A stretch of DNA of 64,000 nt from an uncultured candidatus Porisulfidus sp. (GTDB taxonomy: Bacteria; Pseudomonadota; Gammaproteobacteria; Poriferisulfidales; Poriferisulfidaceae): NCBI GenBank assembly GCA_965242985.1, contig OZ251520.1, forward strand, positions 1,683,227 to 1,747,226. Direction: 5' to 3'. The translations under genes and the position numbers were made by a program. Shown in pieces: positions 12,129-15,300 of this stretch. Each line of letters opens with the position of its first letter. The first letter of the stretch is position 1. Below the pieces are notes generated by a model. That model was not told where the DNA came from, did not search any database, and saw only the letters and a list, made by a program, of their open reading frames with translations.

Positions 12129-13355
12129 TCACTTCCACAGCCTGACAACAAAACGGCCGCCGTCCTCGACCAAATCGGGTTCGGTACCGTTGTGCGCCCG
12201 CATGGCCTTGGCGATGGCGCAGGGTACCCCCAAGCCCAGATGTCTCATATAGCCGTATGCGCACAATACGTCTTTCAACAGTCCATTCCGCGCGGCCCGG
12301 CACCCGCGCTTCACCGTTTCCGCCGTCACGCCGTCAGGAAGCAGCCCGGGCGAAATCACCTCCAGTCGGTCCTGGTAAAGGGAAAGCTCGATGGCCGCAT
12401 CCTCCCAGACGTAGTCCCGGTGCGCCACCGCATTGACGACCGCCTCCCGCACTGCCGCCAACGGCAGGGATTCCCCCCGCCGCCGCCGCGCCCCGCGCAG
12501 CCGGGCGGCGGAACCCATATTTCGGAAAACGAAGTCCACCGCCCGATCAACGACCCCCTTGTCGCCCACGCGTATGCGGTCTCCCGCCGCTCCGGAGAAA
12601 GCAGAAACCAGCGGCCCCCACATCGCTTCCTCGTCCGCGGCGCCGCCCGCCTTTTCCCGGCCCGGGTACGCGGCCGCGGCGATGCCCGCCTGCGGCAGCC
12701 AGCGGCCGGGTTGTTTCCCGAACAGCAGCAGCCCCGACATGGTGGCCGCCGCAGCGCCCCCAAACTCGAGAATGCCCGTGTCCGCCAGCAGCCTCAACCA
12801 GCCCTTTCGGTCTTGTGCGGCGAGCACGGGCTGTCCGAGGACCGCGCCGAAATAGTACTCGAGCCGCAACCGGTCCAAGTCCTCCGGGCCGGACCCGGGA
12901 ACGGCCTTGAGATCGTGGCGGACGACGGCCGCAGACTGATACAGCCGCCCCTCTTCCAGGCGGTCGGCCGCGCGCGAAGTCCTGCCGGCCCGCACGAACG
13001 TGCCCCACGCGGCTTCCTCCCGCGCCTTGTACGGACGATCCGGCCCGTCCGCGGGCACCCCGAGCACGCCGACCATCCTGCCGTCCAGCGCGATGAACTC
13101 GAGGCCCGGGACCAACGGCGGCTGAAGGTTTTCGCGGACGCTATCCCGGACCCAACGCGCGACCTCCCGGCGGCTGCGCGCGAGGCCGGAAACGCGGCCG
13201 TCGTCCTCCACGCCCAGCAGCACCCTCCCGCCCCCGGAATTGAGCATGGCGGCCAGGTCCCGGCCCAGCTTCTCCGGGCGGGCGCCGTCCCGGCCGAATC
13301 CGACCCGGGGGCCTTCGCCCCCGGCCAGCAGCTCCAGCAGTTCAGTCCCGTTCAT
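12129..13355 (-). CDS. Schlafen-like AlbA_2 + HATPase_c_4 domain protein (often annotated RecG-like/ATP-dependent DNA-binding)
   Basis: 408-aa ORF with characteristic AlbA_2 N-terminus and C-terminal HATPase-like region; 14 nt downstream of the Panacea gene. Confidence 0.5.
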   Translation of the reverse strand: MNGTELLELLAGGEGPRVGFGRDGARPEKLGRDLAAMLNSGGGRVLLGVEDDGRVSGLARSRREVARWVRDSVRENLQPPLVPGLEFIALDGRMVGVLGVPADGPDRPYKAREEAAWGTFVRAGRTSRAADRLEEGRLYQSAAVVRHDLKAVPGSGPEDLDRLRLEYYFGAVLGQPVLAAQDRKGWLRLLADTGILEFGGAAAATMSGLLLFGKQPGRWLPQAGIAAAAYPGREKAGGAADEEAMWGPLVSAFSGAAGDRIRVGDKGVVDRAVDFVFRNMGSAARLRGARRRRGESLPLAAVREAVVNAVAHRDYVWEDAAIELSLYQDRLEVISPGLLPDGVTAETVKRGCRAARNGLLKDVLCAYGYMRHLGLGVPCAIAKAMRAHNGTEPDLVEDGGRFVVRLWK

Positions 13356-13369
13356 CAGCAGGGATCCCC

Positions 13370-13885
13370 TCAGGGCGCATGGGCGGCGCAGGCTCCGCCC
13401 GCTTGCCGCCGCTCACCCCCCTCTTCTTCCTGGAACCGTTCCGCATAGTGCTTTTCGAGCAGGGAATCGGGAATGATCGCGCCTTCCCCGCGGCCGCCGT
13501 TGTACACCGCATGCCAAGGCGTGCCGGGCTGATGCGTGATCGCGGACAAATCCCACGCCGAATAGCCGCGGTAGGCGCGGAGCACCGCTTCGAGCAAATC
13601 GTTCTGGTTTTCATCCAAGACGGCGGACCGGTCCGCCGGCGCGGCGGTAATGGGACCGCCACGGAACGACTTGTACGTGTGGTAAACCGTCGGGACCGCG
13701 GGCCCGTACCTCCACGCCTCCGCCGGCTCGGCGATGAGGCCGCGCCCGAAGATGCCCAGCATCCATCCATGGCAGAGATAGGCCAGCTTGAGGACGTGCA
13801 TGGGCGTCGTCGGCAAATCCCGCCGCAGCCACAAGATCTGCTCCGCCGCCGTCCGGGACGGTAGTGCGCCCTGGTTCCTGTTCAC
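13370..13885 (-). CDS. Panacea (DUF4065) domain protein, antitoxin-like; probable GTG start
   Basis: Strong similarity to the Panacea protein at 44709..45239 (LKLAYLCHGWMLG, WRYGPxVxxVY, TPWHxV); homology extends upstream of the first ATG to a GTG at 13885. Confidence 0.6.
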   Translation of the reverse strand: MNRNQGALPSRTAAEQILWLRRDLPTTPMHVLKLAYLCHGWMLGIFGRGLIAEPAEAWRYGPAVPTVYHTYKSFRGGPITAAPADRSAVLDENQNDLLEAVLRAYRGYSAWDLSAITHQPGTPWHAVYNGGRGEGAIIPDSLLEKHYAERFQEEEGGERRQAGGACAAHAP

Positions 13886-14042
13886 CGGCTCCTCCCGCCT
13901 TGCTCGCAACGGACCAAAACCGCATCCGGCCGGCAGACGAAAAAGCCCGCGGGCGCCATGGACATGGCCGCCAACTCCGAGAATGGACGCCGCCAGCCCG
14001 GGAATTGGGAAAACATGCGAATCAGGCGCGCCTGCTCCGCGG

Positions 14043-15059
14043 TCAGCCGGCGGAGGCCTGCTCCAAGGACCGCTGCACACCCCTCCACACCAGCGCGACC
14101 ATCTCGTCAATATGCGGCGTATCGGCCAGAATGGCATTGTCCTCCCGCGAGAGACCATTGTGCAGATCGTCCGGCGTGTACTGCGAGAACTTTTCGCTTC
14201 CGGCCCATCCCTGGGGCGATCGATCCTTCCGCTCCACCAACCCTATCGTCTCCGCAATGCCGCGCGCACAACCGCCGAACCCCCCGAGCAAAAACACGGG
14301 CTGCCGCGCCTCGAGGGACAGCAGCACTTCCTCGGCGACCCCCGGCATGCGCCCCTTGTAGCCCTCGATTCGTCCGCCGGCGGCAATGCGAGCAACGGTC
14401 TCCCCGCACATGGTGCCCCGCATCGCGCTGAGGCCGCTCTCCCACTCGCCGGCGTCCGGCTCGCGCGGCGACATCGCCCGGCGCCGGTCCCATTCCAGCC
14501 GGGCTCCGTCCCGGTCGAGGAACACCAGGCGGACGGCCTCCCCGTGCCCTACGCAGAACTCGTCAAGCTGTTCCAGCGTCATGCGGATATGCACCGGCCA
14601 CGCCAAGTAATCGGTCACGGCGATTTTCCCGCAGTGGTGCGGATGCCCTTGATAGCGGACCAGCAACTGGAGCAGCAGGCCGGGGAATTCGTCGGCGCGC
14701 AGGTCGGCGCCGTAGGCCAGGCTCTGGCCTGAGGCCAGCAGATGCATGGCGATATTACCCATCAGGTCGCGCAAGTGCAGGTCGCTCGTGCCGTAAGCGG
14801 CCATGTCGGGACTTTCCGAAATGGACACCGCCACTGCCGGGGCGTTTTCCGCGTGCGTCACAAGGCTATCCAAAGCCTTTCTCCGGGCCATCAAGTCGCG
14901 CACGGAATCGCCACGTCCGCTGCGAACCGACGGCTCGGCTGCGGCGCTCCCGGGCCTGCCGCCGTCGCATCGGCGAGTGTCCGGGCCGCTGGCCGCGTTA
15001 TCCGGATACGGCCGGTCCTTTTTCGGCACAACCTGCTCCTGCCCGTTCACGATGACCAC
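14043..15059 (-). CDS. Rossmann-like protein with LOG/SLOG-like GGFGG...E motif; N-terminal ~12 codons derive from a degenerate multiubiquitin gene start
   Basis: Motif PVFLLGGFGGCARGIAE; DNA upstream and first codons duplicate the Bub operon 5' region (see repeat 15031..15300); true start uncertain (possibly internal ATG near 14891). Confidence 0.35.
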   Translation of the reverse strand: MVIVNGQEQVVPKKDRPYPDNAASGPDTRRCDGGRPGSAAAEPSVRSGRGDSVRDLMARRKALDSLVTHAENAPAVAVSISESPDMAAYGTSDLHLRDLMGNIAMHLLASGQSLAYGADLRADEFPGLLLQLLVRYQGHPHHCGKIAVTDYLAWPVHIRMTLEQLDEFCVGHGEAVRLVFLDRDGARLEWDRRRAMSPREPDAGEWESGLSAMRGTMCGETVARIAAGGRIEGYKGRMPGVAEEVLLSLEARQPVFLLGGFGGCARGIAETIGLVERKDRSPQGWAGSEKFSQYTPDDLHNGLSREDNAILADTPHIDEMVALVWRGVQRSLEQASAG

Positions 15060-15300
15060 GGCGCCCTTTTCGCGGGCCGCTTCGCGCCTGCCATAATCCG
15101 CTCCCGTGGATTGCCGGAAACCGATTATACGCCCCGACCCGCCTGTTTCCCGGCGGAAATGCCGCCCGCGCCAACGGGCGCAACCCGAGCACTCAAACGC
15201 GGCGCTGCGGAAGCGGTCGCTACCGGGAATGGCGTACGCCTCCAGCGGCTATTGCAGGGGCCAGCTCCCGCGGGCACCGGCCGGGAGAGCTGATTACTCA
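15031..15300. repeat. Diverged duplicate (~70-90% identity) of the promoter + first codons of the multiubiquitin gene (20391..20660)
   Basis: Shared strings ctcctgcccgttcacgatga, attatacgcccc, ctattgcagg in the same order. Confidence 0.6.

Follow-up and report, generated by a model that had tools for sequence, protein, structure and literature searches.

A possible recombinant mosaic of SLOG, Panacea and AlbA_2 genes in a defence island of an uncultured candidatus Porisulfidus sp.

Three minus-strand genes of an uncultured candidatus Porisulfidus sp. (Gammaproteobacteria; Poriferisulfidales; Poriferisulfidaceae) lie within 12129-15300 in the order SLOG cluster-2, Panacea and AlbA_2+HATPase_c_4. 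Do they form one module in which Panacea serves as the antitoxin of a neighbour, as the initial annotation proposed, or are they separate genes brought together by recombination? The window, that is, the whole stretch of DNA analysed, comprises 64,000 nucleotides (contig OZ251520.1, assembly GCA_965242985.1, positions 1,683,227 to 1,747,226, forward strand) and was compared with about 180 related loci, labelled here with L-numbers. GC content is 0.67-0.70 across 12-15 kb versus 0.56 and 0.61 in the flanks, and all three domains are matched in Pfam, which upholds both the high-GC three-gene stretch and the domain calls made earlier. The ORFs are intact, with dN/dS values of 0.18-0.45 over SLOG, Panacea and AlbA_2, and all three genes are still under purifying selection. 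The explanation that we prefer, and to which we give an even chance, is a recombinant mosaic in a hypervariable defence island, in which three separate cassettes, none of them accompanied by its usual partner, would have been joined at gene boundaries, rather than an ancestral three-gene system. Gene identities, canonical partners and their absence here, junctions and selection, from which this explanation starts, are direct observations. The features of the locus and its surroundings are:

12129..13355, minus strand: AlbA_2 (Schlafen-like) + wHTH/HATPase_c_4 protein, 408 aa (Pfam, homologs, alignment)
13370..13885, minus strand: Panacea (SocA_Panacea, DUF4065), 171 aa from GTG 13885 (Pfam, homologs, alignment)
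13886..14042, minus strand: SLOG-Panacea spacer, 157 nt (blastn homology boundaries in six contexts, boundary alignment)
14043..14861, minus strand: SLOG cluster-2 (PF18163) core, 272 aa from GTG 14861 (Pfam, homologs, alignment)
14862..15015, minus strand: leader joining the bubA' fragment to the conserved start of SLOG (blastn, junction alignment, translations)
15016..15259, minus strand: diverged second copy of bubA (Multi_ubiq) upstream sequence plus the 5' end of its coding part (repeat families D1, D3 and D7, pairwise alignment, tblastn)
15332..17280, minus strand: AbiL-type pair, AAA_21 ATPase (15994-17280) and RloB (15332-16000) (Pfam; PADLOC AbiLi 4.4e-92, AbiLii 1.1e-26)
18581..20478, minus strand: intact Type II Bub operon (Pfam)
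20212-20478, minus strand: BubA (Multi_ubiq) (Pfam)
19050-20237, minus strand: BubBD (DUF6791+ThiF) (Pfam)
18581-19168, minus strand: BubE (DUF6527) (Pfam)
44709..45239, minus strand: second Panacea gene (42% identical to the first, tblastn E=4e-32)
44344..45239, minus strand: canonical PanAT-like pair, second Panacea plus small ORF (tblastn, translation)

The SLOG gene is identified by profile: ORF 14043..15059 matches Pfam LD_cluster2/SLOG cluster2 (E=2.6e-57, 194.9 bits, cutoff 25.3, residues 75-274), so that the LOG/SLOG-like GGFGG...E motif noted initially is supported by PF18163. The longest ORF (338 aa from GTG 15059) holds GGFGGC...AE; its 1084 homologs are typically 267-293 aa long, with a start equivalent to GTG 14861, and 93 of 93 family-invariant residues, GGFGGC included, are kept in the alignment. 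The protein combines a Rossmann-like nucleotide-ligand domain with a helical C-terminal region. Its AlphaFold model (pLDDT 77, pTM 0.79) has a Rossmann-like SLOG fold with Gly-rich ligand loops and finds as its top PDB match the BcThsA SLOG domain with 3'cADPR (7uxs, E=1.4e-4), followed by ThsA SLOG (6lhx), TRPM MHR1/2, TM1055 and DprA, which suggests that the window SLOG may bind a nucleotide-type ligand. dN/dS for this gene is 0.18-0.33. Its usual company is TIR proteins: 62 of 84 loci have a ~392-aa TIR_2 protein immediately upstream of SLOG, a ~200-aa ThsB_TIR-like protein adjoins SLOG in 52 of the same 84, and Klebsiella plasmid pKpnB199 has SLOG beside two TIR genes in the same pattern. 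Type III Thoeris (van den Berg et al. 2024, as cited in bioRxiv 10.64898/2025.12.03.692087 and PMC13276650) is described as multiple TIR proteins with a distinct SLOG effector, 'ThsD', an architecture that these loci resemble. PF18163, which lies between TIR_2 and ThsB_TIR-like proteins in most loci and whose window member has a predicted fold closest to ThsA SLOG bound to 3'cADPR, is a candidate ThsD family. Unlike type III Thoeris, the 64-kb window has no TIR gene by tblastn, by profile HMMs for the two TIR partners or by Pfam analysis of 39 ORFs; SLOG instead has Panacea and AlbA_2 beside it and an upstream region taken from a Bub operon. PF18163 is without a model in PADLOC 2.0, and no mention of the family was found in the literature searched. 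SLOG cluster 2 is thus normally the central member of a TIR-SLOG-TIR operon, with the TIR enzymes presumably supplying the ADP-ribose-derived signal that it binds; here it has no TIR gene within 64 kb and sits behind the duplicated bubA promoter/5' fragment, and under the mosaic explanation it possibly responds in trans to signals from TIR proteins encoded at other sites in the genome.

The region upstream of SLOG was initially read as a diverged copy of the promoter of a Ubl operon ~5 kb away. The copy is real: 15016-15084, 15092-15152 and 15236-15259 match 20399-20467, 20476-20536 and 20591-20614 at 72-75%, with a constant offset of ~5.38 kb, and the duplicate (~245 nt) is 77% identical to the sequence upstream of bubA in relative L085 (blastn). 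It is not solely a promoter, since it also includes ~26 5' bubA codons, which tblastn of BubA residues 5-39 likewise detects. These codons carry a 1-nt deletion that shifts the bubA' ATG (15094, preceded by RBS GGGAG at 15105-15101) out of frame into a 15-codon ORF, the TGA of which (15049-15047) overlaps a GTG (15050-15048) in frame with SLOG; bubA sequence therefore supplies the N-terminal ~15 residues of the 338-aa 'SLOG' ORF. The intact Bub operon, of Type II as defined in PMC11601596, is the donor of the duplicate. A perfect TATAAT at 15129-15124 is consistent with promoter function of the duplicate, although a simple sigma-70 scan returned no full promoter there, and the three genes are probably co-transcribed from this borrowed bubA promoter. 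The leader 14862..15015 is open in the SLOG frame, with ATG 14891 inside, but is weakly conserved as protein and is thus probably a linker or untranslated region. The module is not itself a Type II Bub operon: it encodes no Bub protein and holds only the frameshifted promoter/5' fragment. An AbiL-type pair directly upstream divides it from the Bub operon; another recombination scar, at 17386-17660, is the remnant of a 1342-aa gene.

In sister loci the link between SLOG and Bub genes is closer. SLOG follows the Bub operon in three arrangement classes, and in L002 and L171/172 bubE, the last gene of the operon, runs in frame into SLOG directly after BubA-BubBD, through the same leader that the window SLOG retains together with its bubA promoter copy; read-through predicts a 463-aa BubE+LD_cluster2 protein. 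One might conclude that SLOG, with AlbA_2 and Panacea, is a Bub output arm working downstream of Ubl conjugation, either under shared regulation with BubA/BubBD/BubE or as a fusion to BubE, and Bub operons have as yet neither a known effector nor a known phage-defence phenotype (PMC11601596). We regard this as improbable. The arrangement belongs to one narrow lineage, with both domains together in 1 of the 120 best SLOG homologs (of 1084), and no SLOG, Panacea or AlbA_2 component has been described for Bub operons (PMC11601596). The BubE-SLOG linker is low-complexity and fast-evolving, which in high-GC ORFs means that the read-through may be a gene-calling artefact, and the SLOG gene of L171 has a premature stop. 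The window BubE has a normal stop, with AbiL between the Bub operon and SLOG, and in L085 the Bub genes and TIR-SLOG-TIR are separate units.

Panacea appears to be a second orphan. ORF 13370..14158 matches SocA_Panacea PF13274 (E=1.9e-15, 58.2 bits, cutoff 25.7), and homologs (n=229, ~150-160 aa) back a GTG start, as noted initially, and place it at 13885, with RBS GGGAGGAG preceding it. In PanAT systems a Panacea/DUF4065 antitoxin, PanA, is paired with diverse PanT toxins (PMC8832971, PMC10440598), and the window resembles them in having a ~160-aa stand-alone Panacea followed, at the toxin position, by a gene that starts 14 nt downstream. The clade's usual partner is a small membrane-protein (TM) ORF directly downstream (57 of 78 loci, median gap 14 nt). 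Such ORFs also lie 3' of Panacea in the 68%-identical L175-177, and the second Panacea gene of the window, whose similarity to the first was rightly noted, forms a canonical pair with a putative toxin (C-terminal part of ORF 44344-44820, predicted TM helices) that matches the downstream ORFs of L175-L177. No TM toxin occurs 3' of Panacea in close relatives L001, L002, L170-L174 and L181. The window Panacea differs from PanAT in lacking this cognate toxin, in its downstream gene, a 408-aa AlbA_2-HATPase_c_4 found nearly everywhere without Panacea, and in its own C-terminus: the last ~14 codons (13411-13370) form an aberrant, non-native tail in the alignment and derive from the 5' leader that precedes AlbA_2. 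Window 13411..12134 corresponds to L171 3652..4932, where the same leader abuts the end of SLOG. We infer that this Panacea is an orphan antitoxin: a ~0.5-kb cassette whose sub-clade would have shed its putative membrane toxin, moved through the island as a single gene and inserted between SLOG and AlbA_2, with its last codons replaced by the AlbA_2 leader.

Could Panacea nevertheless restrain SLOG? A Thoeris-type effector orphaned from its TIR enzymes might have been re-domesticated as a toxin, with Panacea as its antitoxin. Leader, SLOG and Panacea form one 1.6-kb block that recurs in two contexts (window 15015..13387 and L002 1227..2851, 88.8% by blastn), the canonical partners of both genes are gone in this lineage, purifying selection on SLOG persists without TIR (dN/dS 0.18-0.21), and the known partners of Panacea include many unrelated toxin domains (PMC8832971). 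We nonetheless consider such a pair very unlikely. TIR-less SLOG of the same clade occurs without Panacea in L003, L087 and L088/89, which indicates that the SLOG protein is tolerated alone; Panacea stands beside SLOG in 0 of 80 genomes of other lineages; and in L171, whose SLOG is interrupted, AlbA_2 intervenes. The spacer also separates the two genes: the 3' limit of the SLOG cassette falls within 14037-13960, the Panacea cassette has its 5' boundary at ~13950-13925, and a hairpin with a T-run at 13939-13923 is terminator-like, at a frequency not above chance. Panacea probably has its own conserved upstream region besides transcription from the bubA promoter.

The third gene (ORF 12129..13355) carries SLFN_AlbA_2 (8e-13, residues 28-130) and HATPase_c_4 (9.7e-17, residues 320-406). 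All 2120 homologs share these two domains, with no domain fusions among the top 120; the window protein has them in the family's order and, at 408 aa, close to the family mode of ~411 aa, and it belongs to a very widespread stand-alone family, members of which are named 'RNA-binding domain-containing protein' or 'ATP-binding protein'. Identity is 52-62% to hundreds of MAG proteins and 29-37% to plasmid genes, the latter inside BREX and type I R-M loci; the window gene shares with these bacterial Schlafen-like proteins its two-domain architecture, length and defence-island setting but, unlike the plasmid genes, has no TrlF partner. dN/dS is 0.39-0.45. In profile alignment with Schlafen structures, the family motif E-x4-E-F-K ... 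G-V-x-D-D-G aligns with Schlafen E-x4-E-F ... GVxD, the Glu residues of which are catalytic in Schlafen nucleases. In the window the motif is GEGPRVGFGRDG, which retains the first Glu and the Asp but lacks the second Glu and the Lys (GEGPRVGFG, i.e., E-x4-G-F-G). The same loss affects L001, L171, L170, L173/174 and L086, whereas L085 and distant homologs retain E-x4-E-F-K. Schlafen-type nuclease activity is thus doubtful for the window protein.

The initially reported 14-nt spacing is confirmed, with the AlbA_2 ATG 14 nt past the Panacea stop, which is the canonical toxin position, and the two genes could form a new toxin-antitoxin-like or defence pair in which the membrane toxin was swapped, SLOG is a bystander and Panacea would keep the Schlafen-like protein inactive until triggered. 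Their adjacency recurs in four arrangement classes (window/L001 at 14 nt; L171/172, reversed at 18 nt; L173/174 and L170, each at ~240 nt) with AlbA_2 identities of 59-97%, more often than a crude random-shuffling model predicts, and for this reason the two may be functionally linked. The toxin-less Panacea sub-clade is the AlbA_2-adjacent one, AlbA_2 aligns with the Schlafen nuclease core, and related plasmid genes sit inside defence loci. Against this, Panacea occurs without AlbA_2 in L002 and L181, and AlbA_2 without Panacea in L085, in seven distant SLOG loci and in 3 of 3 plasmid contexts inspected, where TrlF is the partner; the AlbA_2 family is ubiquitous, with >2000 homologs, and is beside Panacea in 0 of 80 more distant Panacea loci, as is SLOG. 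The loss of the second Glu and Lys in the Panacea-adjacent AlbA_2 sub-clade makes a 'nuclease toxin' less likely, the junction in the window is a crude recombination product in which the native Panacea C-terminus was cut off, and neither AlbA_2 nor SLOG was found as a PanAT toxin in the PanAT papers and supplements (PMC8832971, PMC10440598). A PanAT partner would be expected within 100 nt and in a pairing conserved across species; AlbA_2 is close enough here, its pairing with Panacea is confined to one closely related contig set, and we judge a dedicated pair unlikely.

Comparison across relatives is what disfavours a single three-gene module. All three genes occur together as in the window in L001 (DNA 97% identical) and, reordered as BubE::SLOG-AlbA_2-Panacea, in L171/L172; the set is absent from 80 SLOG and 80 Panacea loci of other lineages. 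Elsewhere each gene is found without the others: BubE::SLOG-Panacea without AlbA_2 in L002; TIR-less SLOG without Panacea in L003, L087 and L088; TIR-SLOG-TIR in L085/L086, with AlbA_2 but no Panacea in L085; Panacea-AlbA_2, with SLOG not detected, in L173/L174 and L170; and a lone Panacea in L181. The initial proposal of one module with Panacea as a neighbour's antitoxin is therefore not supported by the comparison. Homology blocks begin and end at start and stop codons, and recombination junctions fall at gene boundaries (Panacea tail/AlbA_2 leader; bubA' fragment). The sampling of relatives is small (12 contigs looked up), and they probably represent one bacterial population and one island, so their arrangements are not fully independent. 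On the mosaic explanation, the third cassette is the AlbA_2 gene, from a ubiquitous stand-alone family and with a degenerate Schlafen-type acidic motif, and the three genes would act independently. Counter-points to it are the recurrent Panacea-AlbA_2 adjacency, the SLOG-AlbA_2 neighbours in distant MAGs and the placement of SLOG after Bub genes in three classes.

SLOG and AlbA_2 do meet outside this lineage: AlbA_2-type genes adjoin SLOG in distant MAGs L018, L043 and L074, the two are neighbours in MAGs of four phyla, and in L052, a Longimicrobiales MAG, they share one fused ORF. A further proposal is that SLOG and AlbA_2 form a TIR-independent two-component defence module, captured as a Type II Bub output arm, with Panacea as its safety catch; to the four phyla and the fused ORF, its case adds the joined genes of L171, the BubE::SLOG fusions and the kept bubA promoter. 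We think it has only a slim chance of being correct. If it were, SLOG with AlbA_2 would be the first candidate effector for Bub pathways.

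The module on the minus strand at about 12129-15300 comprises three genes, listed here with a second Panacea gene found elsewhere in the window.

14043..15059, minus strand: ORF with a SLOG cluster 2 domain (LD_cluster2, PF18163; Pfam E=2.6e-57)
13370..14158, minus strand: ORF with a SocA_Panacea domain (Pfam, 1.9e-15)
12129..13355, minus strand: ORF with SLFN_AlbA_2 (8e-13) and HATPase_c_4 (9.7e-17) domains (Pfam)
44709..45239, minus strand: second Panacea gene, 42% identical to that of the module

The initial annotation had described a high-GC set of a LOG/SLOG-like, a Panacea and a Schlafen-like gene, and it is accurate in coordinates, domains, starts, GC content and likeness to the second Panacea gene. 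GC content is 0.67-0.70 over 12-15 kb versus 0.56 and 0.61 in the flanks. DNA reading and homolog lengths together place the Panacea start at GTG 13885 behind GGGAGGAG, which gives a product of 171 aa, and the AlbA_2 ATG (13355) lies 14 nt past the Panacea stop. The conserved SLOG start is GTG 14861 (the roughly 1084 homologs are typically 267-293 aa long), and 157 nt separate SLOG from Panacea. Neither the SLOG nor the Panacea protein matches a PADLOC model, and Rfam detected no RNA family anywhere in the 64-kb window. All module ORFs are intact. Relative to homologs, dN/dS is 0.18-0.33 for SLOG (0.21 and 0.18 against other TIR-less copies, in the relatives L002 and L088), 0.13-0.36 for Panacea and 0.39-0.45 for AlbA_2. 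A decaying remnant was rejected given the intact ORFs, dN/dS of 0.18-0.45 and retention of all invariant SLOG residues (93 of 93 positions in an alignment that includes TIR-associated members).

SLOG cluster 2 was surveyed with one genome per species, which gave 80 loci (L005-L084) at 49-63% identity. They span many phyla, including Nitrosopumilaceae archaea, and are mostly MAGs of lineages typical of sponge microbiomes (Poriferihabitaceae, Entotheonella, Porisulfidus, Binatia and Latescibacterota are represented); such identity across phyla in mostly sponge-type MAGs suggests extensive horizontal transfer inside one habitat. De novo ORF clustering placed a ~392-aa protein, the C-terminal half of which is a TIR domain, directly upstream of SLOG in 62 of 84 loci, and a ~200-aa ThsB-type TIR protein as the third member of a TIR-SLOG-TIR trio in 52 of 84. 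Precomputed Pfam labels give the order TIR_2 - LD_cluster2 - ThsB_TIR in close relatives, and the Klebsiella plasmid pKpnB199 has the same TIR/SLOG pattern. The trio often sits inside a type I R-M locus, with hsdS on one side and hsdR on the other. This position is occupied by the trio or a lone SLOG in L005, L006, L007, L012, L018, L068 and L074, and in some such loci an AIPR or AlbA_2/HATPase_c_4 gene follows. A conserved 74-aa ORF (MACRVGITTNPERRKKEWQQKHPDLWNW...) without a Pfam match, absent from the window, precedes TIR-SLOG-TIR or SLOG-SLOG in close relatives (L085 4533-4757, L086 4531-4755, L003 6750-6974). Later papers describe 'type III Thoeris' as a system in which a separate SLOG effector, ThsD, accompanies several TIR proteins (bioRxiv 10.64898/2025.12.03.692087, PMC13276650); SLOG cluster-2 loci are alike in architecture, a likeness that rests on architecture and not on ThsD family identity. 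The window contains no TIR gene by tblastn, profile HMMs or Pfam, and none of the 80 loci has Panacea near SLOG. PF18163/LD_cluster2 is not mentioned in the literature searched, which also yielded no relevant paper on SLOG together with Panacea. The AlphaFold model of the SLOG protein (pLDDT 77) is closest to the ThsA SLOG domain with bound 3'cADPR, followed by TRPM MHR1/2, a LOG-like protein and DprA. The predicted resemblance to ThsA supports a role in binding a nucleotide ligand; only this fold search was informative, as a sequence-profile search of the PDB with the SLOG alignment gave chance-level matches.

Panacea relatives were surveyed at 80 metagenome loci (27-57% identity), none of which has an AlbA_2, SLOG or Bub gene nearby. 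Immediately downstream, their usual partner is a small ORF predicted to encode transmembrane helices (57 of 78 loci; median gap 14 nt), which also follows Panacea in the relatives L175-177 (68% identical) and at the second Panacea gene of the window. The latter forms a PanAT-like pair at 44344-45239 (minus strand), and its small ORF, with hydrophobic helices, resembles the ORFs that follow Panacea in L175-L177 and at many metagenome loci. The Panacea sub-clade at least 79% identical to the module's copy is without this small ORF. The PanAT papers and supplements (PMC8832971, PMC10440598) contain no SLOG, AlbA_2 or HATPase_c_4.

AlbA_2-HATPase_c_4 proteins have more than 2000 homologs (about 2120), and the best 120 of these share the same two domains, are mostly 406-425 aa long (a few up to 459) and include no fusion to another domain. 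Viral contigs contain no relative, and the literature searched for AlbA_2/HATPase_c_4 offered nothing about the bacterial family. Plasmid-borne copies are paired with the gene of a TrlF-family ATPase and lie within BREX or type I R-M loci. In Citrobacter, Vibrio and Pseudomonas plasmids (L178-L180; 29-37% identical) they always follow a 'TrlF family AAA-like ATPase', and the pair, at hsdS/hsdR or pglX/pglZ (BREX), looks like a two-gene module set in R-M/BREX loci. The family consensus GENSxVEFKRDD...GVEDDG aligns with E-x4-E-F...GVxD of solved Schlafens. Those carboxylates are catalytic in Schlafens, as in the SLFN13 literature. The window protein reads GEGPRVGFGRDG at this motif; the second Glu and the Lys are lost across the Panacea-adjacent sub-clade (L001, L171, L170, L173/174) and also in L086.

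Contigs of close relatives carry copies 70-97% identical to the module genes, in the following arrangements.

L001: syntenic with the window
L085: 74aa - TIR - SLOG - TIR - DUF1828 - AlbA_2 (opposite strand) - BubA - BubBD - BubE
L086: TIR - SLOG - TIR - AlbA_2
L003/4: SLOG - SLOG - DUF1828
L087: DUF1828 - SLOG
L088/89: AAA_21 - SLOG - SLOG
L002: BubBD - BubE::SLOG - Panacea, without AlbA_2
L171/172: BubA - BubBD - BubE::SLOG (premature stop) - AlbA_2 - Panacea
L173/174: Panacea - AlbA_2
L170: Panacea ... frameshifted Panacea - AlbA_2
L181: Panacea alone

Homology blocks in blastn comparisons begin and end at gene boundaries.

14870/14861 to ~14037, minus strand: SLOG block
~13925 to 13381/13425, minus strand: Panacea block
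13355 to 12132, minus strand: AlbA_2 block

L171 has the SLOG end (window 14013) joined directly to the AlbA_2 leader (window 13411). The 600 nt that separate these two points in the window are the Panacea cassette, and the aberrant C-terminal tail of Panacea is translated AlbA_2 leader, so the cassette went in between the SLOG and AlbA_2 genes. A motif, GC(G/A)G(C/G)AAG(A/C/G)GG, lies at the 3' end of all Panacea cassettes (L170, L173, L181, L171; window 13411-13425) and in the AlbA_2 leader, and may be a microhomology used at this junction. Obligate SLOG-Panacea or Panacea-AlbA_2 pairing was rejected, with each gene found without the other. The earlier proposal of one module with Panacea as antitoxin of a neighbour holds for adjacency and the 14-nt spacing, but each gene also occurs without the others in relatives. 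A functional Panacea-AlbA_2 pair is unlikely, though the better of the neighbour pairings: their adjacency recurs in four differently built arrangements and the spacing matches the toxin position, but each gene is also found alone, AlbA_2 has a degenerate acidic motif, and the two genes meet at a crude junction. That SLOG is the toxin of Panacea is improbable; the two moved as one block into L002, but TIR-less SLOG copies without Panacea exist.

The upstream region of the module had been described as a diverged copy of the Ubl-E1 operon promoter, and comparison upholds this: window 15016-15259 matches 20399-20614, the bubA (Multi_ubiq) upstream region and gene start, at 72-75% identity, and the corresponding bubA region of a relative at 77%. 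The source is a Type II Bub operon, defined as BubA, BubBD and BubE (PMC11601596), which is intact at 18581-20478.

20212-20478, minus strand: Multi_ubiq (BubA), 88 aa (Pfam)
19050-20237, minus strand: DUF6791+ThiF (BubBD), 395 aa (Pfam)
18581-19168, minus strand: DUF6527 (BubE), 195 aa (Pfam)

The copy (bubA') keeps a perfect TATAAT (15129-15124), the RBS, the bubA ATG (15094) and ~26 bubA codons. Through a 1-nt deletion the reading frame from that ATG shrinks to a 15-codon ORF, and its TGA (15049-15047) overlaps a GTG in frame with SLOG; the 338-aa 'SLOG' ORF therefore begins with residues ('VIVNGQEQ...') that derive from bubA. A true N-terminally extended SLOG protein was rejected on this ground and on homologs starting at the 14861 equivalent, although the extension may still be translated, because the GTGA start/stop overlap follows the 15-codon ORF. 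A consensus sigma-70 scan found no full promoter, so activity of bubA' as a promoter is inferred from conservation only; terminator-like sites are no commoner than chance. The leader 15015-14862 is common to the window and the BubE-SLOG linker of L002/L171. The ancestor probably carried a Bub operon with SLOG as its 3'-terminal gene, and of that copy the window would keep only the bubA promoter/5' fragment. A Bub-linked output module is as doubtful as SLOG as a toxin: BubE::SLOG fused ORFs and the retained bubA promoter speak for it, but only one lineage shows the association, and the linker, of low complexity, evolves fast.

Apparent in-frame fusions occur as BubE::SLOG in L002 (685-2196, 463 aa called) and L171 (2157-3620, premature SLOG stop), and as AlbA_2-HATPase_c_4::SLOG in L052 (6714-9011, 765 aa, Longimicrobiales MAG); genuine fusion, loss of a stop codon and assembly error are all possible origins. 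In the distant MAGs L018, L043 and L074, AlbA_2-type genes are neighbours of SLOG, and in L052 the two make up a single continuous ORF; this proximity may just reflect a common insertion hot-spot, hsdS to hsdR.

The evidence favours juxtaposition over a new system, and we give about an even chance to a recombinant mosaic in which three cassettes, mobile independently of one another, have come together without their usual partners. The borrowed bubA promoter would probably drive all three genes as one transcript, whose products, if active at all, would work independently: SLOG may answer in trans to TIR signals from elsewhere, Panacea may be an orphan antitoxin, and AlbA_2 belongs to a ubiquitous family of stand-alone proteins. 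Neither the domains nor their canonical systems are new; the TIR-less SLOG behind a Bub promoter, the toxin-less Panacea sub-clade and the BubE::SLOG and AlbA_2::SLOG ORFs are not described in the literature searched.

The surrounding island is an extreme GC mosaic (46 to 80% per 1-kb window over 1-64000), with two SlipAM genes in very high-GC blocks (3765-5285, 36232-38328). The SlipAM/Hexapep/Cys_Met_Meta_PP flank also borders the island in L001, L003 and L171, and the site is therefore a conserved chromosomal hot-spot. Between the Bub operon and SLOG lies an AbiL-type pair (AAA_21/AbiLi + RloB/AbiLii; 15332-17280, minus strand); L088/89 lack RloB at this point and have SLOG immediately after a related AAA_21 gene. 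A fragment at 17386-17660 (plus strand), 40% similar to residues 1207-1298 (C-terminus) of a 1342-aa MqsA/HTH-like protein that flanks TIR-SLOG-TIR in L085, L086 and L003, looks like a further recombination scar. A 173-aa protein with weak HSDR_N similarity (18015-18536, minus strand) follows BubE, as in L001 and L085, and is possibly an accessory component, so far undescribed, of this Bub clade. Convergent on AlbA_2 is a 1370-aa protein (7969-12081, plus strand) without a Pfam or PADLOC match; its N-terminal P-loop GGPGSGKT and C-terminal D...E-x-K-like motif would suit a STAND-like NTPase that ends in a nuclease. Content at 29478-36058, 45700-51638 and 58765-63777 is defence-type: a JAB-like protein, a 1139-aa M78-UvrD-PD-(D/E)xK fusion, a 1299-aa reverse-transcriptase protein, a DUF4411 + M78 peptidase pair, a pentapeptide protein and a Dnd-like cluster (PAPS_reduct, AAA_23, DndE-HerA-like).

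For gene-neighbourhood inference, 14-nt spacing and a shared upstream region here mimic an operon-level system and represent recent cassette shuffling; the true partners of each gene are visible only when diverged loci are compared. The locus presents defence-island evolution in the concrete, with homology blocks bounded by start and stop codons, reuse of a fragment made up of a promoter and the beginning of a gene, an antitoxin cassette of ~0.5 kb placed at varying sites, and effector, antitoxin and sensor-like genes that outlive partner loss under purifying selection. If a minority reading is true, Panacea, a promiscuous antitoxin, would have a Schlafen-like partner, TIR-less SLOG cluster-2 genes would be a lead, and BubE-SLOG fusions could point to an effector of Bub ubiquitin-like pathways. 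The main value lies in well-documented cassette shuffling and in a warning against reading function from tight spacing alone.
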